64,000 nt of DNA from Candidatus Woesearchaeota archaeon (GTDB taxonomy: Archaea > Nanobdellota > Nanobdellia > SCGC-AAA011-G17 > CAYUTI01), in the NCBI GenBank assembly GCA_964447685.1, contig CAYUTI010000003.1:7026-71025 (forward strand), given 5' to 3'. Made by a program: the position numbers and the translations under genes. Positions within the stretch are counted from its first letter, which is position 1. Each line of letters begins with the position of its first letter. The notes under the pieces are model-generated. The model was not told the DNA's origin and did not search any database. It was given only the letters and a program-made list of their open reading frames with translations. Positions 10,883-35,065 of this stretch are shown in pieces.

Positions 10883-11145
10883 TTTCTTATATTTAAAAGT
10901 AGCATAAATGCTTGCAATTGCGACTTAAAAAAGATTGCTAAAAGTATAAACCTTTGTGAATCTGGAGAAGAAAACTATTGTCATGATGATTGTGGAAAAG
11001 AAAATAGTATTATAGATAACAACCAAGAAGAAGGTTTTTTTCAGAAGATTATTGGTTTTTTTAGAAGCTTATTTAGTTAAAATCTTAGATTCTTAAAAAA
11101 AAAAAACATTCTTTTATGACTTCTGAACATTTGGATTTAGAGAAG

Positions 11146-11260
11146 TTTTTGCGTAGCAAAAAATTTGGGAGAGCGAAGTGCAACGAGGTTTCCTGTTAAG
11201 TGAGCCGAGCGAGAGCGCAGCGTGGTCGAGGAGCGAAGCGAAGAAAGTCGAGTTTTGCCC
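11146..11260. repeat. GC-rich mosaic repeat element, copy A: hairpin ttttgcGTAgcaaaa, module Z, then the 13-bp left inverted repeat
   Basis: Shares the hairpin tttttgcgtagcaaaaaa with 11739-11757. gaagtgcaacgagg...ggtcgaggagcgaagcgaagaaagtcgag is shared with 13581-13623. Ends with tcgagttttgccc (11248-11260). Confidence 0.7.
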
Positions 11261-11295
11261 GATACATTAATAAACTTCTAAATAATTTTAATGTT

Positions 11296-11601
11296 ATGGA
11301 CATTAAAGAAATAGAAAAACGAATTATGGATTTTGCTAAGAAAAGAGCATCAGCAAAAAATTTTGATTTGACTCCAGAATTATCTTATATTCATTTAACT
11401 GAAGAATTGGGCGAAGTAGCAAGACAATTATCTAATAAAAAAATTCGCCCAGATTTATTTGATAAAGATAATCTGAAGGAAGAAATTGTTGATGTAATTC
11501 TGGAGGCAATTATTTTGGCGAATATTTGTGAAACAGATTTAGATAAAGAAATTAGCCAAAAGATTGATGCTCTTTTCAAAAGACATAATTTTTCTGAATA
11601 A
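11296..11601 (+). CDS. MazG-like nucleoside triphosphate pyrophosphohydrolase (all-alpha NTP-PPase)
   Basis: LTEELGEVARQ...EEIVDVILEAIILA EExxE/EExxD motifs typical of the MazG/HisE fold, ~101 aa. The track's GTG start at 11200 would read through the GC-rich repeat (Arg-rich artefact). Confidence 0.6.
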   Translation: MDIKEIEKRIMDFAKKRASAKNFDLTPELSYIHLTEELGEVARQLSNKKIRPDLFDKDNLKEEIVDVILEAIILANICETDLDKEISQKIDALFKRHNFSE

Positions 11602-11603
11602 GA

Positions 11604-11964
11604 GGGCAAAACTCGATTGCATTTAACATCGGAATTTAACGAAGTCGCCGAAGGCGATTTGGGGATTTTTCGCAGGAAAATCCCAGATAATCGCTGTTAT
11701 ACGCGTCTGCTAAGACCGAGCCATAGTCTGCAAGACGGTTTTTTGCGTAGCAAAAAAATGGCGAAGAGTTAAATTTAATTTTCATATCAATTCTGCGAAG
11801 CAGACTATATTTTAAGGGAATTCTCTCTCAAGCTCGAAGAGCTATAGATTAAATACATAAAGGGCAATTTCTTTTCTGGCACGAAGTGCTTTTCAATTAA
11901 ATCTTAAAGGGGTCGCCGTCCTTTTTTGCTTCTTTTTTGGAAAAAAGAAGATTATGGGGTCGCC
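11604..11964. repeat. GC-rich mosaic repeat element, copy B (hairpin-rich; modules X, Y, W)
   Basis: Starts with gggcaaaactcga, the reverse complement of 11248-11260. Contains stem-loops gtcgcc-gaa-ggcgat, gggatttt-cgcagg-aaaatccc, ttttgc-gta-gcaaaa, agctc-gaag-agct, gcac-gaa-gtgc, a 22-bp perfect palindrome at 11929-11950, and ggggtcgcc twice. Confidence 0.7.
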
Positions 11965-12027
11965 TAATTTCAAGTTAATTTAGAGTTATAGGTATTTTTA
12001 TATATTTAAAGATTTTAGATTAATATT

Positions 12028-12390
12028 ATGAGAAAGTTATATATTGTTTTGATCATTATTGGAATTTTGATAGTTGGATATACAATAAGCCTTAATTATT
12101 TTAATGCCAAATTCGATAAAGAATGGTTATCTTGTGAAACAGATGATGATTGTATTCTTGTTCCAGATTATCGAATTTGTTCTTGTGGAGATATGGCATT
12201 AAATAAGAATTTTGAAGATGATTATATGTCAATGAGATTTAAAAATAATATATATAATAAGATTTCTCTTGCCAAAATGCAAGTAATTTGTGAGGTTTGT
12301 GCAACTGTTGATCCTATAAATGGAGAAGTTGTTGGTAAATGTGGTAATTCCTTAGGAAGGAATATATGCGTGATTGGTTCTGGTTCTTAA
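12028..12390 (+). CDS. small Cys-rich secreted/membrane-anchored protein
   Basis: N-terminal hydrophobic anchor followed by a Cys-rich domain with 11 Cys (CETDDDC...CSCGD...CEVC). Confidence 0.5.
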   Translation: MRKLYIVLIIIGILIVGYTISLNYFNAKFDKEWLSCETDDDCILVPDYRICSCGDMALNKNFEDDYMSMRFKNNIYNKISLAKMQVICEVCATVDPINGEVVGKCGNSLGRNICVIGSGS

Positions 12391-12461
12391 TTTATGATCA
12401 TATTTCAAGCCAAATTGAAATTATAGAAAGACTTATATAATATCTAATTATTTATTCTGAT

Positions 12462-13100
12462 ATGCATAAAAAAATATTAATTAGTGCCTTAGTATTTATA
12501 ATGATTCTAACTAGTTTAGTTACTGCTAGTTTGTATGCTGAAAAAGTTCCAGATCCAAGCAGATTTACATCTATACAACCAAGATGGTCAGCACAATTAG
12601 AATTATCTGATGGACAAACAATAAAAGTATCTCTAATAACTTTTAAATGGTTGAGTTATCAAAATAAAACAGAAGTAACTCATATGTTCTACCTAAATGA
12701 CGGAATGGATGAATATTTAGCTGAAAAAGGTGCAGAATTTTTTGTTGAAAAATATGAATTTACATGTCAAGAGGGTTATGAAAATTGTACAAAAAAATGT
12801 GATTCTGGTGATGAATCTTGTATAGATGATTGTGTAGAAGAATTTAATTGCGGAAGTGTTTCTACTTGTAGTATATTTGCTCCAGATGACACATGCTCTG
12901 TAGAAAGAATAGAACAGAATTTTGGTAAGCACACCTTATCTTTAAATTTTGATCCTAATTCTGGCAAACCAATAATGGGACCCATAGTTTCTGATAGTGG
13001 AGTAATTATAAAATCTGCTAGCAATTATGATGGAAAACCTATTGAATTAGTAGCAGGACAAAATGGTTTTTTAAGTAAGGGGGTATTCTCATTAGAATGA
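12462..13100 (+). CDS. secreted Cys-rich protein
   Basis: Signal peptide (ILTSLVTASLYA) and multiple Cys pairs (CTKKCDSGDESCIDDCVEEFNC). Confidence 0.5.
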   Translation: MHKKILISALVFIMILTSLVTASLYAEKVPDPSRFTSIQPRWSAQLELSDGQTIKVSLITFKWLSYQNKTEVTHMFYLNDGMDEYLAEKGAEFFVEKYEFTCQEGYENCTKKCDSGDESCIDDCVEEFNCGSVSTCSIFAPDDTCSVERIEQNFGKHTLSLNFDPNSGKPIMGPIVSDSGVIIKSASNYDGKPIELVAGQNGFLSKGVFSLE

Positions 13101-13273
13101 AATTGAGATATCTGATACCTATTTTATTATTAATCTTAGTTTTAATTGTAGGTTGTGTGCAGAAATTAACTCCTCCTGAAGAGGAAGTGCCAGAAGAAAC
13201 ACTTGGAATTTCTACTCAAGAAGAACTATTTGAAGCTGTTAGAACTGCTGTGAATGAACATCTTAAAGAATAA
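13097..13273 (+). CDS. small putative lipoprotein (58 aa)
   Basis: ATG overlaps the upstream TGA (ATGA coupling). MKLRYLIPILLLILVLIVGC has a lipobox-like signal. Absent from the ORF track (<60 aa). Confidence 0.35.
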   Translation: MKLRYLIPILLLILVLIVGCVQKLTPPEEEVPEETLGISTQEELFEAVRTAVNEHLKE

Positions 13274-13632
13274 GCGACCCCAAATAAATCTCAAAACTGA
13301 AAGTTTTGACTATCTGTTGCGGAGCAACCAAGGCGACCCCCTTTTATTTTTTTGGAAATTGCCCTTTTTAGTTTTTAGAGAGAATTCCCGTTTTCTAGTC
13401 GTGAAAATTAAATTTAATTGCGTATAACATCGCGATTAAGAGAAGTCCGAAGCCCTCGAAAAAATTTCCCTCGTGAAACAGAGTTGGAAATTTTTTCAGA
13501 GATGGCGAGGATTTGGGAAAATTCCTGCAAGGGATTTTCCTCTTAATCGCTGTTAAATCCCCCGACGAACGAAGTGAGGAGAGTGCAACGGGGTCGAGGA
13601 GCGAAGCGACGAAGAAGTCACAGAACGGCGCG
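13274..13632. repeat. GC-rich mosaic repeat element, copy C (modules W in reverse orientation, X, Z), ending in the 14-bp inverted-repeat arm
   Basis: gcgacccc/ggcgacccc mirror ggggtcgcc at 11909/11956. Hairpins tcaaaact-gaa-agttttga and gttgc-gga-gcaac. agagagaattccc is the reverse complement of 11816-11829. 13504-13560 aligns with 11653-11705; 13581-13623 aligns with 11175-11252. Confidence 0.7.
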
Positions 13633-13662: not shown

Positions 13663-14391
13663 TTATCCTAAATCAAATTGTCCCCAATAATTAACTGAAA
13701 AATCTTTATCGGCAGAATCTAATTTATTGTAATCTGAATCTAATAAATCAACCTTTAAAGTATAAGTTCCGTCTTTCTCAAACATACAGCCCATTATTGA
13801 GATTTCTCCAGTTTGTTTCTGACCTGCTGAAATTGTGCTAATTTCATCAAACATAGGGCTTCCAGAACAAACTTCGTTATCGTTGCTATCATAAACATAC
13901 AAATCAAATTTTGGAGAAATCGAAACATCTCCTGTATTAGTAACGGTTACACGAGTGGGATAAAGATTTGCTACTTGAATTTGAACTCTATCAATAGATA
14001 AAGTAGCACTTTTTACTTTTTGTTTTGGAGGTTCTTGGGGCTGTGTTTGAGTATTTGAAGGAGTAGAAGTTTCAGAAGGTTGATTTACATTTTCTGTTGG
14101 TTGGATTTTTACGTCATCATTAAAGATATTTGACGAAGGCAAACTTACAGCATAAATTACAAACAGAATGATGACTAGTGTTATTTTTAATCCTCTTGAT
14201 AATTCAAAATTAAACTTTTCTTTTACAAACTTATTAACAGGTGGAAGTAAAACCAAAGACGCAAGTATAAGAGAACCACCTGCAACTATTCCACCACTAA
14301 AAAGAAAAGTTAATCCGCTTAATCCAAATAACACTCCGAAAATCCAACTTAAAACAAGACCTAATGTGATTTTTTTTGTTTCTTTTGACAT
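13663..14391 (-). CDS. membrane-anchored surface protein (N-terminal TM, Thr/Pro/Gln-rich linker, beta-rich C-terminal domain)
   Basis: 242 aa with TM segments at the N-terminus and a PSETSTPSNTQTQPQEPP linker. Own BRE/TATA at ~14413-14428 on the minus strand. Confidence 0.5.
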   Translation of the reverse strand: MSKETKKITLGLVLSWIFGVLFGLSGLTFLFSGGIVAGGSLILASLVLLPPVNKFVKEKFNFELSRGLKITLVIILFVIYAVSLPSSNIFNDDVKIQPTENVNQPSETSTPSNTQTQPQEPPKQKVKSATLSIDRVQIQVANLYPTRVTVTNTGDVSISPKFDLYVYDSNDNEVCSGSPMFDEISTISAGQKQTGEISIMGCMFEKDGTYTLKVDLLDSDYNKLDSADKDFSVNYWGQFDLG

Positions 14392-14434: not shown

Positions 14435-14463
14435 AGGGTGGGAAAGTTAGCGCCGTTCTGTGA
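14435..14463. repeat. 10-bp direct repeat agggtgggaa plus the 14-bp right inverted-repeat arm gcgccgttctgtga
   Basis: Perfect reverse complement of 13618-13631. agggtgggaa is also at 13638-13647. Confidence 0.7.
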
Positions 14464-14565
14464 TTGGATTTAACACCTATTATACGAATAAAAAGTTCGC
14501 TTTTTATCCCTATTTTGGAGTTATTACGAACTTTTTTATACTTTGGAGTTATTTTTAAAATTATG

Positions 14566-15342
14566 GAGAAGGAAAAATATCTTCAAAAACTAAATGAAGA
14601 ACTTAAATTAAGGGGTTATTCTGAAAAAACTAAAAAAAGTTATAGTTATATTATTACCAGATATCTGGAAAAAGAAATAGATCCTAGAGAATTTTTATTA
14701 AAAAATAGTTATAAAAGTAAATCTACAATGCGTAGCAATTATTTTGCGCTAAAGTTTTTTTATGAAAATGTCTTAAAGCAAAAATTTAAAGAAGAGATAC
14801 CTCTAGCAAAAAATGAATCAAAAATACCTGTTGTATTAAGTAAAGAAGAAGTCCAAAAACTCTTTGATGTTACATTAAACTTAAAACATAAATTTGCCTT
14901 AATGCTATTATATTATACAGGGATAAGATTGAATGAGCTCATTAATTTAAAATGGGAAGACCTAGACTTTGATAGAAAGGTTATTCATCTTAAAACAACA
15001 AAAGGAAATCATCAAAGAATTATTTTTTTACATAATAAATTGATACAAATCATAACCTTCTTAGGGTTGGAAAAGAAGGGGTTTATCCTAATTTCAAATA
15101 GAAATAAAAAATATAATCAAAGATCCATACAACAAATTATCAAGAATGCTGTAAAAAAAACAGGTATAAACAAAAAAGTTACTCCTCATAGTTTAAGACA
15201 TTCATTTGCTACCCATCTATTGGATTCTGGAGCAGATATACGACATATTCAAAGATTATTAGGTCATAAGGATTTGAAAACTACTCAGATTTATACCCAT
15301 GTTACCAATAAAGAAATAAATAAACTTTCTGAATTATTGTAG
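14566..15342 (+). CDS. XerC/XerD-like tyrosine recombinase (archaeal XerA-like integrase)
   Basis: R (GIRLNEL), HxxR (HSLRHSFATH) and catalytic Y (TQIYTHV) of the tyrosine recombinase fold. ~259 aa from ATG 14566; the track's TTG start at 14464 is probably non-coding. Confidence 0.85.
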   Translation, partial: EKEKYLQKLNEELKLRGYSEKTKKSYSYIITRYLEKEIDPREFLLKNSYKSKSTMRSNYFALKFFYENVLKQKFKEEIPLAKNESKIPVVLSKEEVQKLFDVTLNLKHKFALMLLYYTGIRLNELINLKWEDLDFDRKVIHLKTTKGNHQRIIFLHNKLIQIITFLGLEKKGFILISNRNKKYNQRSIQQIIKNAVKKTGINKKVTPHSLRHSFATHLLDSGADIRHIQRLLGHKDLKTTQIYTHVTNKEINKLSELL

Positions 15343-15383
15343 ATAACGAAAGCTTTAATAACTTCTTTACTAATTTTAAAGAT

Positions 15384-16697
15384 ATGGCTTATGATGTTAT
15401 TGTCGGTAGAAATGAGTCCGACAGAAAAAGATTTGGTGAAGAGGGAACTGTTCTTTTAGGCAAGCAATATGTAAAGATGGGTCCAGTTACTAGTTTGAGT
15501 AATAATGTTTTTTTGGATGTTAATCGGCCTCATGTTATATTATTGGCTGGTAAAAGGGGTTCTGGAAAATCTTATACTCTTTCAGTTATAGCAGAAGGAA
15601 TTTCTAATTTACCAAAATATATCTCCAAAAATATTTCTGTTTTAATATTTGACACGATGGGTGTTTTCTGGACAATGAAATATAAAAATCTGATGGATGA
15701 AGATCTTTTAATGGAATGGGGAATGAGTCCTGAAGAATTAAATATTTTGTGGTGGGTCCCAAAAGGTTTCTACAAAAAGTATGAAAGAGAAAATTTACCA
15801 GTTGATAAACCCTTTACAATTAAACCTTCTGAATTAAATTCAGGAGATTGGTGTGAAGTTTTTGGTGTTAGTATGTTTAATGAAGAAGGAATTTTGATTG
15901 AAAAAGCAGTTTCAGCTGCTTCAAAAAAAGGGAATTATTCTATTTTAGATGTTGTTAAAGAGATTCAAAAAGATAAAAAAAGTAGTCAGAGGGTTAGAGA
16001 TGGTTTAGAAAATAGATTTTTAGCTGCTCATGGATGGGGGTTGTTTAGTAAGGAAGGAACTGCAATCAAAGACTTATTAGTTCCTGGAAGGACTTCAGTT
16101 CTTGATGTTAGTGTTTACACTCATGTTGCTGGAAGTTGGGCTATTAAAAATTTAGTTATTGGATTAGTTTCTAGAAAATTATTATTAGAAAGGATGATTA
16201 ATAGAAAAGTTGAAGAATTAGCTAATATTAAATATGGTACTACTTATTTTACTCGAGAAGAAGAAAAAGAAACCATGCCTCTAGTATGGTTGATGTTAGA
16301 TGAAGCTCATGAGGCTTTACCTAAAGAGGGAAAAACCCCTGCTACTGATGCTTTAGTTCAATTACTAAGAGAAGGAAGACAACCTGGTGTTACTTTAGTT
16401 TTAGCAACTCAGCAACCAGGAGAGATTCATAGAGATGTTATTACTCAGTCTGATATTGTAATTAGTCATAGGTTAACTGCTAAAAGAGATATTGAAGCTT
16501 TGAATGCAATGATGCAGAGTTATTTACAAAGCGATATGGTAGGGTATTTGAATAATTTACCTAGACTTTCTGGTTCGGGTATTGTTTTAGATGATAATTC
16601 TGAAAGAATTTATCCAATTAGAGTTAGACCAAAATTAAGTTGGCATGGTGGTGCTGCACCTAGTGCTTTAAAAATAAGAAAAGAAATTATGTTTTAA
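15384..16697 (+). CDS. HerA/FtsK/VirB4-superfamily P-loop ATPase (DUF87-like)
   Basis: N-terminal barrel-like segment (DVIVGR...GTVLLGK), Walker A GKRGSGKSYT, Walker B LMLDEAHE, ATQQPGEI sensor region. Confidence 0.7.
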   Translation: MAYDVIVGRNESDRKRFGEEGTVLLGKQYVKMGPVTSLSNNVFLDVNRPHVILLAGKRGSGKSYTLSVIAEGISNLPKYISKNISVLIFDTMGVFWTMKYKNLMDEDLLMEWGMSPEELNILWWVPKGFYKKYERENLPVDKPFTIKPSELNSGDWCEVFGVSMFNEEGILIEKAVSAASKKGNYSILDVVKEIQKDKKSSQRVRDGLENRFLAAHGWGLFSKEGTAIKDLLVPGRTSVLDVSVYTHVAGSWAIKNLVIGLVSRKLLLERMINRKVEELANIKYGTTYFTREEEKETMPLVWLMLDEAHEALPKEGKTPATDALVQLLREGRQPGVTLVLATQQPGEIHRDVITQSDIVISHRLTAKRDIEALNAMMQSYLQSDMVGYLNNLPRLSGSGIVLDDNSERIYPIRVRPKLSWHGGAAPSALKIRKEIMF

Positions 16698-18682
16698 GCT
16701 TTAGCTTCTACTTTCCACATTAAATCCCTATATTCTCTATAGCCAATGGTATCACCATTTCTTTTACCAAATCCAGTAGATTCTGTAAACAGTTCTCTTG
16801 CTTTTTTAGAGTTTCCTAAGTTACCATGAGCTTCTTTGAATTTTTTTATTTCTTCAACTACTTCCTCATGTTCTAAGAATTTTGTAGACCAGGATATATT
16901 ATCTGTGTATCTTTGTGCAAGAAGAGTTTCTTCAACAGCGTAAGTTGATACTCCTGTACTCTCTGCTATCTTTTTGATTCTTTGAGTATTATTTTTGATA
17001 TTTGTGTTTCCTCTAAAATTATGATAAGTTGTTTTGATTACTTCTTGAGTTTCTTGATCTGCTTTAGGTTCTTGATTGCTAAGATATCTTAAAATTTCAT
17101 TAGGTAGTAAATAAGGATCTACGAAAGCCTCATGCTTGTGATTAACCATAAAGTCTAAGGTGATTCCATAAGGGATAGTCAATGTTTCTTCTAGAGTATT
17201 CCATTTTGCTTTGATTTTTCCTGAAGCTCTATCTGGAACAGGAAGATTATCTTTGTAAACCCCTGCAAAAAGATTAATTACCTCTTGATTAGTGGGTTGG
17301 TGATCTAATTTTTCAACTAACGTTTGTTTTTCTGCTAAAGGTTTTCTGCTTCTTTCCAGTTCTGCTTGTTTTCTAGCAACTAAATTTTGTTTAACTTCTG
17401 GGCTGATTAGATCTAATTGAGTAAATTCTGAATCTCTTCCTTGAGATAATATTGCCATACTAATTTTACCTTTAGTTTTTATTCTATCTTCATCCATATA
17501 TTTCCAAGAATTATTTCCTGCACGATAATAAGCGTTAACTACTTCTTGAACTGTGTAAGTTCCAGTTGGTACTGAGACAGGCTCAGGTTGTATAGAACCT
17601 TCCAAAGGAGTTGGTTCTTGTTTTGGTTCAGAATGGATTGTTGGTACTTGAGTAGGTATACCTACTGGAGCACGACCTCCATTCATTTCAGAAATTTCAT
17701 GCCAGGATAATCCTTCTGTATTAGAAATATTTGTTTGTGTTGGAGTAGCTGTAGGGTGAGTTGGTGTTTGAGTTATAGTAGGTGTTGCAGTAGGATAAGG
17801 GATTTCAGTAGGTTTCATTGTGAAAACTGAAGGTCTCTCAGGGGTAGGCATAGGTATTGTTTCTATGTCTCCATAACCTAAAGAAATTAAAAGATTTGGT
17901 TCTGGACTTGAAAATGGTGATTCAGAAGCTATTTCAATTTTTTTATTAATTTCTTTCTTTTCGGTTTGTTCAAAAGGAACTGGTTTTGACCAGGTGAAAT
18001 TAAAAATAGGGAATAAAGGTTTATTCCAAAATCTTGTAGAAGATTCATAATTTGGAATTTTTTGTTCAGGGGCTTGATTAAAAACAGCAGAAGTGGATGA
18101 TACTAATGGAAAAATTAAAGGTGAAGCCATTGTTGAAACAAGTCCTAAGGACCCAACAAAAGATGCAACATAACCTAATGTTCTCTCAAAGAAGGATGGG
18201 TTATATTCTAATTCAAGAGGTTCTTTGACAATTTCTTGTTTAGATTCTTTGACAATTTCTTGTTTAGGTTCCACTGGTTTTGAGACTTTATATAGAACAT
18301 TTGTTAGATAACCTATTGAAGTAGCAATATCTGCTGATTCTTGAAGTGCTTTTTTATTTTTATTCCAGAGAATATGATTAGTATCTATACTTAGAGCAAG
18401 ATTTTCTCTTAATCTTTCTGAATCTCTTGAAGGAGTGCTAGCTAATGCATGCATTACTATAAATGTACTAAGTTCCTCTGCAGAAGCCTTACCTAATCTT
18501 TTAGTTGTGATAGTATCATCATCAATTGCTTTAGGTGCATAAATAAATGCTCTATTAACTCCTTTTGGAAGGGATTGAACAGAGTTAGAAATATCTGCTA
18601 AAGATTTAATTCCCCAATTATCTCTTAAAATGTCTTCTAATTTTGCGAATTCATTTACTAAATTAGTTCCGTTCTGAGTCAT
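16694..18682 (-). CDS. large hypothetical membrane-anchored protein with a Thr/Pro-rich linker
   Basis: 662 aa with an internal TM (LGYVASFVGSLGLVSTMASPLIF) and a PTATPTITQTPTHPTATPTQT linker. Contains a 24-bp in-frame tandem repeat (KQEIVKES x2). Confidence 0.5.
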   Translation of the reverse strand: MTQNGTNLVNEFAKLEDILRDNWGIKSLADISNSVQSLPKGVNRAFIYAPKAIDDDTITTKRLGKASAEELSTFIVMHALASTPSRDSERLRENLALSIDTNHILWNKNKKALQESADIATSIGYLTNVLYKVSKPVEPKQEIVKESKQEIVKEPLELEYNPSFFERTLGYVASFVGSLGLVSTMASPLIFPLVSSTSAVFNQAPEQKIPNYESSTRFWNKPLFPIFNFTWSKPVPFEQTEKKEINKKIEIASESPFSSPEPNLLISLGYGDIETIPMPTPERPSVFTMKPTEIPYPTATPTITQTPTHPTATPTQTNISNTEGLSWHEISEMNGGRAPVGIPTQVPTIHSEPKQEPTPLEGSIQPEPVSVPTGTYTVQEVVNAYYRAGNNSWKYMDEDRIKTKGKISMAILSQGRDSEFTQLDLISPEVKQNLVARKQAELERSRKPLAEKQTLVEKLDHQPTNQEVINLFAGVYKDNLPVPDRASGKIKAKWNTLEETLTIPYGITLDFMVNHKHEAFVDPYLLPNEILRYLSNQEPKADQETQEVIKTTYHNFRGNTNIKNNTQRIKKIAESTGVSTYAVEETLLAQRYTDNISWSTKFLEHEEVVEEIKKFKEAHGNLGNSKKARELFTESTGFGKRNGDTIGYREYRDLMWKVEAKA

Positions 18683-20632: not shown

Positions 20633-21283
20633 GTGATAAAACATGTTTCTTTCCAGCATCCAGGAGGGTATTACTTCTATAGGATGCATAATATCAAGAG
20701 TGAAAGATTAAATAATGGTTTATCAAACTTGAAAGTTTTTTTGAACAACATGTTTGAAGACTGCCCTCATGATTATTTTTTTACAGGTCCTAGGAGTTCT
20801 CAATTAAAATTCCAATTACCTAAACTAGATTTAAAAAAAGTTACTGGGCATGAAGTTTGTGAGTTAACATCTAAGGGTTTAGAAGAAAATTTTTTTAGAT
20901 TTAAAACTGCACATTCTAAAGTTCAGGTTTATATGTTAGAGAATGATGATAAAACTTTAGCGGTTGAAGTTCCTATTTGGTTAAATGCTAATGAGTTGAA
21001 AAATTATTCTAGATTATTTCGTAGTCAGGAACCTTTAACAGGACATATAGATATTTTAAGATTAGAAAATGATAAAATTTGGGTGTGGGATTATAAACCT
21101 AATGCGATCAGAGAAAAATATGCTGCTACTCAAGTTTATTTCTATACTTTAATGTTAAGTAAGAGAACGGGTGTTCCTTTAGATCACTTTAGATGCGGTT
21201 ATTTTGATTCTGCTTATGCTTTTATGTTTAAGCCAGAAGAAATGGAATTTAAAGAAATAAATGAAGAATTATTGAAAAGGTAA
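20633..21283 (+). CDS. hypothetical protein, possibly PD-(D/E)xK nuclease fold
   Basis: GHIDILRLEND...VWDYKP resembles the D...(D/E)xK nuclease core. 216 aa. Confidence 0.35.
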   Translation: MIKHVSFQHPGGYYFYRMHNIKSERLNNGLSNLKVFLNNMFEDCPHDYFFTGPRSSQLKFQLPKLDLKKVTGHEVCELTSKGLEENFFRFKTAHSKVQVYMLENDDKTLAVEVPIWLNANELKNYSRLFRSQEPLTGHIDILRLENDKIWVWDYKPNAIREKYAATQVYFYTLMLSKRTGVPLDHFRCGYFDSAYAFMFKPEEMEFKEINEELLKR

Positions 21284-34896: not shown

Positions 34897-34904
34897 CTTT
34901 AAAA

Positions 34905-34980
34905 TGGGCCCGAGGGGATTTGAACCCCCAACCACCCGATTAAGAGTCGGGTGCTATAAACCAGGTTAAGCCACGAGCCC
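34905..34980 (-). tRNA. tRNA-Lys (anticodon CUU), CCA encoded
   Basis: Minus-strand sequence GGGCTCGTGGCTTAACCTGGTTTATAGCACCCGACTCTTAATCGGGTGGTTGGGGGTTCAAATCCCCTCGGGCCCA folds as a cloverleaf: 7-bp acceptor stem, anticodon stem CCCGA/TCGGG with loop CTCTTAA, T-loop TTCAAAT. Confidence 0.8.
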
Positions 34981-35065
34981 ATAGGTTATCCAAGGAAAAT
35001 ACTATTTAAAAAGTTATTGATATAGTGTAATTAATTTTAAATACTTCTAATTTCTTTATCTATTC

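Follow-up and report, generated by a model that had tools for sequence, protein, structure and literature searches.

The window studied here is a stretch of 64,000 nucleotides (nt) from a Candidatus Woesearchaeota archaeon (contig CAYUTI010000003.1). It is archaeal DNA of about 31% GC and encodes RFC-L, HtpX, LemA, Trm5, FEN1, and PolB. An earlier note on this DNA described three open reading frames (ORFs) between LemA and Trm5, coding for a tyrosine recombinase, a HerA-like ATPase, and a 662-aa protein, and all three are present as described. We favor, with moderate confidence, the reading that the segment from 10.9 to 15.35 kb, which holds the recombinase gene and a cargo array upstream of it, is a sedentary integron-like gene-capture platform that was inserted beside a native ATPase gene, with the 662-aa gene, an ORFan, following. 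Recombination itself we infer from sequence. The platform occupies the spacer between LemA and the ATPase gene in this genome only and was absent from that spacer in all 80 related loci. The gene identities, the synteny, the families of sites and repeats, the covariation of hairpin arms, and a population breakpoint were observed directly. The platform in the window looks partly fossilized, with one of its three attC-like units intact and the right half of the recombinase-proximal site decayed.

The recombinase gene lies on the plus strand at 14563-15342 and encodes a XerA-like tyrosine recombinase of 259 aa without the IntI-specific insert, as judged from Pfam, NCBIfam, and PDB alignments. Translation starts at the ATG at 14563, giving a product identical to the database protein P0123; the start at 14566 given in the earlier note is codon 2. 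Pfam assigned a Phage_integrase domain (2.4e-44) and an N-terminal SAM-like domain. The best NCBIfam model was archaeal XerA (NF040815) at 206 bits, below its cutoff of 220, and integron-integrase models came next, also below cutoff (TIGR02249, 193 bits vs 265). XerA was the best PDB sequence match as well (5hxy, 1.8e-38), and the alignments to the XerA structures 5hxy and 4a8e were continuous. The phmmer alignment to VchIntIA (2a3v) was split, with query residues 4-160 matching residues 4-174 of IntI4 and residues 180-249 matching 239-308. Between these blocks, 19 query residues face 64 IntI4 residues and about 175-238 of IntI4 is skipped and, therefore, the IntI-specific domain around patch III is absent from this recombinase. 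R121, K146, H208, R211, H234, and Y243 were invariant across the family alignment (A2) of 22 sequences, which has a mean column identity of 73%. From alignment to the XerA structures and knowledge of the family, these six residues would be the R-K-H-R-H-Y catalytic positions.

A second tyrosine recombinase is encoded on the minus strand at 38521-39342, and the two are 38% identical to each other. The second one scored 264 bits on the XerA model and passed the cutoff of 220; the recombinase at 14563-15342 therefore looks like a specialized paralog. Orthologs of the latter are numerous, 57-66% identical, about 260 aa long, and mostly found on very short contigs. On longer contigs, the genes downstream of the ortholog differ by genome (thioredoxin reductase [TrxB], histone, nucleotidyltransferase/HepT, CoaE), and contigs repeatedly end just upstream of the ortholog gene. 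A metagenome scan built on the recombinase alignment relied on generic Xer/IntI peptide patterns; most of what it returned was distantly related, and only the locus L086 was close. The recombinase loci examined closely were L081-L087, L101, and L166-L186, and in none of them was an ortholog beside the ATPase gene found here.

Upstream of the recombinase gene, a recombinase-proximal site on the plus strand (14467-14541) is made up of a TTAAC box (14470-14474), a decayed palindrome, and a TATA-like element (14532-14541). Orthologous loci have a nearly invariant sequence, TTTAACAACTATTAAACGCAGTTTTAATTGCTGTTTAATAGTTTGTTAAAT, about 50-100 nt before the start codon, followed by a TATA-box promoter. 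The ortholog site holds a 13-6-13 palindrome, CTATTAAACGCAG-TTTTAA-TTGCGTTTAATAG. L085 and L086 have the full R''-L''-loop-L'-R' hairpin, about 57 nt long (DNA fold z = -7.3), and in L087 the palindrome is kept with a different stem sequence. The copy in the window (14467-14512) kept the TTAAC box and has a decayed right half.

The position of variable DNA relative to this site was seen in a population of contigs that encode one identical recombinase, P0192. More than 24 contigs carry it, with identical downstream genes throughout (CoaE, a CTP-transferase-like gene, S17e, and Rpb6) and with upstream genes that fall into two unrelated sets. The variants (L176 vs L177) cease to be homologous exactly at ...C|TTAACAAC..., the TTAAC box. 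On the other strand the breakpoint reads G|TTAAGC and G|TTAAGT, fitting the integron crossover core G|TTRRRY, and its position is the outer TTAAC box, about 8 nt beyond the palindrome, and not the central spacer. Four independent contigs end at most 15 nt from the breakpoint: L169 and L170 start at the breakpoint, L082 inside the palindrome, and L086 12 nt before it. The orthologous loci, then, have an insertion point beside the integrase gene with a break of the G|TTRRRY type. When the possibility that variant A is variant B plus an insertion was tested, the contigs were found to share nothing left of the junction. The locus in the window is present on one other contig, L186, with the same arrangement and so represents one allele.

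Three attC-like units lie on the plus strand within 3.7 kb upstream of the recombinase and separate small cargo ORFs. Beginning at 11122, 11621, and 13422, they form a cluster if this is defined by two or more sites with under 4 kb between them (Ghaly et al. 2022; PMC9668308). Unit 2 (13422-13558, with a conserved 3' extension at 13559-13618) is intact and runs R'' GTATAAC, a 2-nt bulge, L'' GCGATTAAGAG, a branched variable region, L' CTCTTAATCGC, and R' GTTAAAT. Its DNA fold is -33.2 kcal/mol (z -6.7), the unit profile matched it at E 3e-22, and the best partner of its left arm is its own right arm. The two other units are decayed. Unit 0 (11122-11201; R'' TCTGAAC ... R' GTTAAGT) has a conserved GC-rich 3' extension at 11202-11250 and a profile match at 11162-11246 (E 6.7e-12), and its arms no longer pair (z -1.25). 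The arms of unit 1 (11621-11702; R'' ATTTAAC ... R' GTTATAC) pair partly (z -2.6). The general anatomy of a unit is R'' YTTAACA, a 2-3-nt bulge, L'' (RNATTAARNG), GAAGT, and a variable hairpin, followed by ATTTGGG, a hairpin with a CTGCAAG loop, L', R' TGTTAAR, and a GC-rich 3' extension.

Searches for further units were conducted with nhmmer, using the window units as single queries and a seven-sequence profile. A simple scan for RYYYAAC...GTTRRRY palindromes gave 375 matches in the control loci, where the DNA is AT-rich, and was dropped for the profile searches. Unit matches were found solely upstream of this recombinase family and in every case on the strand of the recombinase. Among the matched loci are L087, L089, L094, and L101, whose recombinases share only 39-47% identity with the one at 14563-15342. 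L083, L087, and L176 have two units each. The ATPase loci, which served as 1.18 Mb of control DNA, gave no nhmmer match to the units, and no Rfam family matched the array at gathering or permissive thresholds.

In 8 of 11 units, among them unit 2 of the window and units of L083, L087, L101, and L176, no right arm pairs better with the left arm than the one in the same unit; the L boxes vary between units yet pair with their own partner. With arms chosen by eye, 86.9% of the cells in a box-only alignment were paired compared to 70.2% in shuffles, none of 500 of which reached the observed value. Compensatory changes occur in 13 of the 18 pairs of this alignment, and slid controls were 32-46% paired. 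The intact units have DNA fold z-scores of -5.6 to -7.1. Again with arms chosen by eye, the units show the anatomy of attC sites: R''-L''...L'-R' order, RYYYAAC/GTTRRRY ends, paired arms, extrahelical bases, and a variable center. GNA triloops typify stable DNA hairpins. Four GC-stem c(GAA)g mini-hairpins of this DNA type lie on the plus strand at 11646-11889 (control density about 0.035 per kb), and they are the only ones on the plus strand of the 64-kb window. GNA-triloop mini-hairpins number 37 on the recombinase strand and 12 on the other.

A difference of 141 nt between L166 (1128-1268) and L167 was considered as a cassette excision and rejected. The sequences are otherwise identical, and what separates them is an internal deletion, imprecise and with junctional microhomology, that removes the right half of an attC-like unit. 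It is an instance of population-level decay of the units.

In the mechanism that we propose, the XerA-derived recombinase (14563-15342) would act beside a cognate hairpin-type site (about 14467-14512), with the cargo array and its attC-like palindromes upstream. One DNA strand of each unit, probably the plus strand of the window, would fold into a hairpin. The hairpin stem would rebuild a two-box core consisting of an R box (TTAACA/TGTTAA), about 5 nt with 2-3 bulged bases, and an L box (ATTAA-type). Strand exchange at the R box (G|TTRRRY) between the hairpin and the proximal site would then lead to cargo insertion or excision. The platform would simply have happened to land in the LemA-ATPase spacer. 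Both the action of the recombinase on these sites and the identity of the folding strand we infer. The breakpoint and the GNA-loop asymmetry favor the recombinase strand, and the orientation of the ORFs is mixed.

The gene that follows the recombinase, at 15384-16697 on the plus strand, encodes a HerA-fold P-loop ATPase of 437 aa that lies outside the platform, as judged from homolog counts, synteny, and an AlphaFold model. It starts 41 nt past the recombinase stop codon in the same orientation. The earlier note had read its motifs correctly: Walker A is GKRGSGKS, the DEAH-like Walker B is LDEAHE, and Pfam matched DUF87 (2.4e-10) and HerA_C (1.6e-6). Homologs numbered 6,971, the best 120 of which are full length and 57-64% identical and come from metagenome-assembled genomes of Woesearchaeota, Pacearchaeota, and Nanoarchaeota, often on long contigs. 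Synteny was compared in 80 ATPase loci from different species, queried with 16 window proteins. The closest relatives have a recurring order of RFC-L, then HtpX and LemA on the minus strand, the ATPase gene on the plus strand, Trm5 and FEN1 on the minus strand, and a nuclease and PolB on the plus strand. Trm5 is downstream of the ATPase gene and on the opposite strand in 30 of the 80 loci, with a spacing of only 3-48 nt in L001, L006, L011, and L052. Upstream, LemA/HtpX abut the ATPase gene in L017 and L001, and in L017 LemA ends 44 nt before the ATPase start. In relatives without the array and recombinase insert, the ATPase gene thus sits between LemA-HtpX and Trm5-FEN1, directly abutting LemA/HtpX or Trm5 in these five loci. 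None of the 80 loci has a recombinase near the ATPase gene, and none has a match to the four array ORFs. A promoter-like AAAGCTTT element 5' of the ATPase start is also present in an insert-free relative, suggesting that the ATPase gene keeps its own promoter. We conclude that the ATPase gene is a native, lineage-wide chromosomal gene of the HerA clade and not part of a mobile element.

The remaining neighbors of the ATPase gene vary and, by sequence reading, include PpiC-type and thioredoxin-type proteins, TrpRS, DnaG, giant surface proteins, Trm5, and HtpX. No NurA, Mre11, or Rad50 was among the recurrent neighbor proteins read from the 80 loci; a SIR2 or DUF4297 neighbor was found in none of the loci, and transfer genes were seen neither around the ATPase gene in the window nor in the 80 loci. 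The AlphaFold model, made with 35 homologs, had a predicted local distance difference test (pLDDT) score of 86 and a predicted template modeling (pTM) score of 0.86. Its N-terminus is a short beta-hairpin domain of about 45 aa ahead of the P-loop core, so the HAS-barrel-like N-terminus of the earlier note holds to that extent and a full HAS barrel is not present. Foldseek found HerA of T. kodakarensis and S. solfataricus as the best PDB matches (E 3e-20 to 2e-18; TM-score 0.6-0.68; 15-17% identity) and anti-phage HerA proteins next. No VirB4, TraC, or Ced chain was among the 50 best PDB matches, on which the fold comparison was judged, and the VirB4-like kinship first proposed gives way to a HerA fold. 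The curated HerA equivalog models gave 29-43 bits and their cutoffs of 800-970 were not reached; other weak NCBIfam matches were to CedD (28.5 bits, cutoff 600) and to FtsK/EssC-type ATPases. The ATPase resembles HerA of the HerA-NurA system in fold, in Walker A and B, and in a conserved REGRQPG segment, a possible site of the arginine finger. It differs in being about 60-140 aa shorter, in its truncated N-terminal barrel, and in its lack of a NurA, Mre11, Rad50, SIR2, or DUF4297 neighbor. The protein is probably a hexameric double-stranded DNA translocase in a replication/repair neighborhood that runs from RFC-L to FEN1, nuclease, and PolB.

No phage relatives of the ATPase were found, and among plasmids the sole notable relative, with 32% identity, is encoded in a defense island of a Haloplanus megaplasmid. 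At that locus (L187; Haloplanus sp. HW8-1 plasmid NZ_CP098519.1, 114950-117258), the homolog is translationally coupled to an upstream gene for a 380-aa hypothetical protein, and the pair lies in a defense-type island that also encodes a BREX-like ATPase together with a PD-(D/E)XK nuclease and helicase. This island suggests that the wider ATPase family has partnered, defense-linked branches. A defense-system reading of the ATPase in the window was rejected, as the PADLOC HerA/mad8 matches were weak and there were no partner genes. In L003, L004, L005, and L011, a giant surface protein rich in repeats (981-1450 aa, transmembrane segment at the C-terminus) ends at or overlaps the ATPase start codon, suggesting that the two genes are co-transcribed in this subclade. 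A PD-(D/E)XK, Cas4-like nuclease is encoded at 20633-21283, between FEN1 and PolB, and is kept in L001, L002, L008, L011, and L013; it could be a nuclease partner of the HerA-like ATPase.

The 662-aa gene (16694-18682, minus strand) is also outside the platform. The earlier note's account of it stands in that it overlaps the ATPase gene tail-to-tail by 4 nt and that the protein has a single internal hydrophobic segment (about aa 172-195), which reads as a transmembrane segment, and a Pro/Thr-rich stretch (about aa 210-400), here followed by a K/E-rich C-terminal domain. The protein matched itself alone among 5.8 billion proteins. An exhaustive HMMER pass over 1.84 billion representatives gave two weak matches to aa 471-642 (E 2.7e-9 and 9.8e-7), both to unannotated proteins without a Pfam match. 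Pfam, NCBIfam, PHROGs, and PADLOC gave no match to the 662-aa protein, and none of the 80 ATPase loci has a relative. Among relatives, the ATPase-Trm5 gap ranges from 3 nt to about 9 kb and is filled by unrelated ORFs. The gene is tightly packed between the ATPase gene and Trm5 and has no flanking repeats and, therefore, nothing marks it as recently mobile. It is an ORFan specific to this genome and occupies a variable gap. Within the ORF, a 24-nt tandem repeat (18209-18265) encodes the repeated peptide KQEIVKE(S/P).

The cargo of the platform consists of small ORFs. A MazG-like ORF (ATG at 11296, 11296-11601, plus strand; Pfam MazG 2.4e-7) has no homolog in the 80 ATPase loci. The plus-strand region 12028-13273 holds Cys-rich secreted-type ORFs of 120 and 212 aa and a lipoprotein-like ORF of 58 aa (13097-13273), for which no Pfam or PHROG match was found and which are absent from related loci. 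Closest to the recombinase is a 242-aa membrane-anchored ORF on the minus strand (13663-14391), which had no family match in Pfam, NCBIfam, PHROG, or PADLOC. It is flanked by a perfect 13-bp inverted repeat, CACAGAACGGCGC / GCGCCGTTCTGTG, at 13620-13632 / 14451-14463. As this ORF is the sole minus-strand ORF of the array, the segment may be invertible. Each copy of the repeat stands beside a direct GGGTGGGAA, and a similar GCGCGC..GGGTGGGG module is present in L101 and L094. Other inverted repeats bracket the remaining cargo: GTCGAGTTTTGCCC / GGGCAAAACTCGA (11247-11262 / 11601-11614) the MazG-like ORF, and nested repeats (11816-11965 / 13331-13392) the 120-aa and 212-aa ORFs. Near the LemA promoter, at 10915-11080, there is a truncated ORF remnant with a Cys-rich motif (..CHDDCGKE..) resembling that of the 212-aa ORF (..CIDDCVEE..), and the two have a 25-nt DNA repeat in common (12818-12842 in the 212-aa ORF). 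The remnant looks like a decayed, related cassette gene.

Several observations weigh against the integron-like reading. The cargo ORFs are on both strands, and some relatives hold 5-6 genes in the segments between units; the cargo does not have the form of promoterless, single-gene, co-oriented cassettes read off a common promoter. The segment-specific inverted repeats around the cargo are unexplained by an integron model, as are the conserved GC-rich extension of about 60-90 nt and the GGGTGGGRA module that the units bear. Because the unit arms were set by eye, the pairing counts are biased upward. Elsewhere in the window, GNA hairpins are likewise skewed between the strands, though less strongly (35 vs 12), and this skew partly follows gene orientation. 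No circular cassettes, clean excision alleles, or direct recombination events were observed in the loci compared. Also, with two of three units and the proximal site decayed, the copy in the window may be inactive.

The main rival explanation casts the enzyme as a housekeeping XerA that would resolve chromosome dimers at the palindrome next to its gene, this palindrome being its dif. The variable DNA would then be terminus plasticity or integrative mobile elements exploiting Xer (IMEX-like), and the units would be their dif-mimicking ends. Single-recombinase Xer systems with dif beside the gene exist, for example XerS/difSL, and the recombinase could be a dimer-resolution Xer of this kind. XerA was its best match in both NCBIfam, with a score just under cutoff, and the PDB, and its family shows the degree of conservation expected of a core gene. 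The ortholog site contains the 13-6-13 palindrome, where a dif would be a unique site of crossover with 11-bp inverted arms and a 6-bp spacer, and a predicted dif is close to xerA in Sulfolobales (Cortez et al. 2010; PMC2958812). Nevertheless, it is the other recombinase of the window that passes the XerA equivalog cutoff, and the chromosomal position of the gene discussed here differs between genomes. The breakpoint is at the outer TTAAC box instead of within the palindrome, and the arms of the upstream units covary at distances of 40-100 nt, which fits hairpin folding and not a double-stranded dif. We regard this explanation as the less likely one. The units could also be autonomous elements, such as MITE-like (miniature inverted-repeat transposable element) repeats or undescribed small RNA genes, that gather in variable regions with no recombinase-mediated exchange. 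They reach 200-250 nt with their extensions, have conserved modules beyond the attC-like core, show the internal deletion polymorphism of L166/L167, and covary in a way that fits RNA folding as well as single-stranded DNA folding. However, they are tied to and co-oriented with the recombinase family and absent from the control loci, their R boxes agree with those of the population breakpoint and the proximal site, GNA triloops occur in their loops, and Rfam does not match them. An autonomous origin is, in our view, improbable.

Two further alternatives connect the recombinase with the ATPase. The earlier note proposed that the recombinase, a HerA/VirB4-like ATPase, and the large membrane protein make up a single integrated plasmid or DNA-transfer module. 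The three genes do lie side by side with little space between them, and the weak CedD and FtsK/EssC-type matches of the ATPase would fit such a module. The ATPase gene is native by synteny, though, and this removes the main support for the integrated-plasmid argument: none of the 80 related loci has the recombinase or a relative of the 662-aa protein, recombinase orthologs never adjoin this ATPase gene in the loci examined closely, and the fold is that of HerA. There were also no phage matches, the nearest plasmid relative is distant, and a search for direct or inverted repeats between about 10.9 kb and about 18.7 kb, where flanking att direct repeats had been expected, gave chance-level matches only. 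The module is thus very improbable, and the idea of the 10.9-18.7 kb block as an insertion survives in part: the array with the recombinase (about 10.9-15.35 kb) is non-native and the 662-aa gene is unique to this genome, but the ATPase gene between them is native and the block is not one insertion. It has even less to recommend it that the two form a functional Xer-translocase pair, in which the HerA-like ATPase activates or directs the neighboring recombinase as FtsK does XerCD in bacteria. Besides the co-orientation and the 41-nt spacing, this idea draws on HerA and FtsK being of the same ATPase superfamily. Archaea have no FtsK homolog, according to a review of archaeal tyrosine recombinases (PMC8371274). 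The adjacency is unique to this genome, however, with no co-occurrence in the ATPase loci or the closely examined recombinase loci, and the ATPase gene retains a promoter-like element that an insert-free relative also has. An integron-like platform beside a native ATPase gene remains the reading that we prefer.

The region of the second recombinase has features of its own. The gene at 38521-39342 overlaps an upstream Cys-rich HNH-like ORF (39329-39850) and adjoins a gene for a PadR-like regulator. A protein encoded beside it has weak matches to "mobile mystery protein B" and to an AvrAC-type effector model, and a tRNA-Lys(CTT) gene lies at 34904-34981. The region 37224-39850 might itself be an integrated element.

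An integrase gene beside a HerA-like ATPase gene does not by itself indicate a mobile element. In these small-genome archaea, the ATPase gene belongs to the conserved core, is uncharacterized, and is worth study on its own account. Integrons are defined by an integrase whose extra domain is thought to be needed for reading folded attC hairpins. This requirement would be challenged by a Xer-like enzyme that lacks the domain yet consistently borders attC-like arrays in DPANN archaea. Archaeal integrons and clusters of attC sites lacking integron-integrases (CALINs) have been described, including Woesearchaeales and Pacearchaeales assemblies with 2-4 attC sites and no IntI, and a Nanoarchaeota attC recombines with IntI1 experimentally (Ghaly et al. 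2022; PMC9668308). Within the literature library searched, no publication was found linking a Xer-type recombinase to archaeal attC arrays. We suggest tentatively, as something possible rather than probable, that Woesearchaeota, Pacearchaeota, and Nanoarchaeota carry a widespread integron-type capture system, with a XerA-derived integrase lacking the IntI domain, folded attC-like hairpins, and a hairpin-type site by its own gene. If true, such a system would explain why the attC arrays of these lineages were reported as integrase-less, and it would be an ancestral-grade or independently evolved integron. It would also give integron-search tools a new archaeal marker and bear on the origin of integrons from Xer-type recombinases.

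Compared to known systems, the units have the same geometry as the Nanoarchaeota attC (PMC9668308), namely an R box, about 5 nt, and an inverted L box. The platform is like integrons in having a tyrosine recombinase gene beside a site with variable upstream content and a break at a G|TTRRRY core. It is also like them in having cargo split by imperfect palindromes with RYYYAAC/GTTRRRY ends, covarying inner arms, bulges, and a variable apex. It differs from classical integrons in that the recombinase lacks the additional IntI-specific domain, the proximal site is an attC-type hairpin whereas attI is non-palindromic, the units carry extra modules (ATTTGGG, a CTGCAAG-loop hairpin, and a GC-rich 3' extension), and the cargo is in both orientations and at times multi-gene. 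Archaeal XerA/dif (PMC2958812) is the nearest in sequence and similar in the recombinase length of about 260 aa, the absence of extra domains, and a palindromic site by the gene. Unlike XerA, the recombinase falls below the equivalog cutoff, which its paralog in the window exceeds, and is accompanied by hairpin units and variable cargo; the breakpoint does not fall in the spacer of the palindrome. In the CTX phage, attP(+) is a folded single-stranded DNA hairpin that mimics a core site and is recombined with a chromosomal site by XerCD, a Xer-type recombinase without the IntI domain. There, phage genomes enter at bacterial dif, whereas here the cargo is short, chromosomal, and archaeal, with no phage genes.

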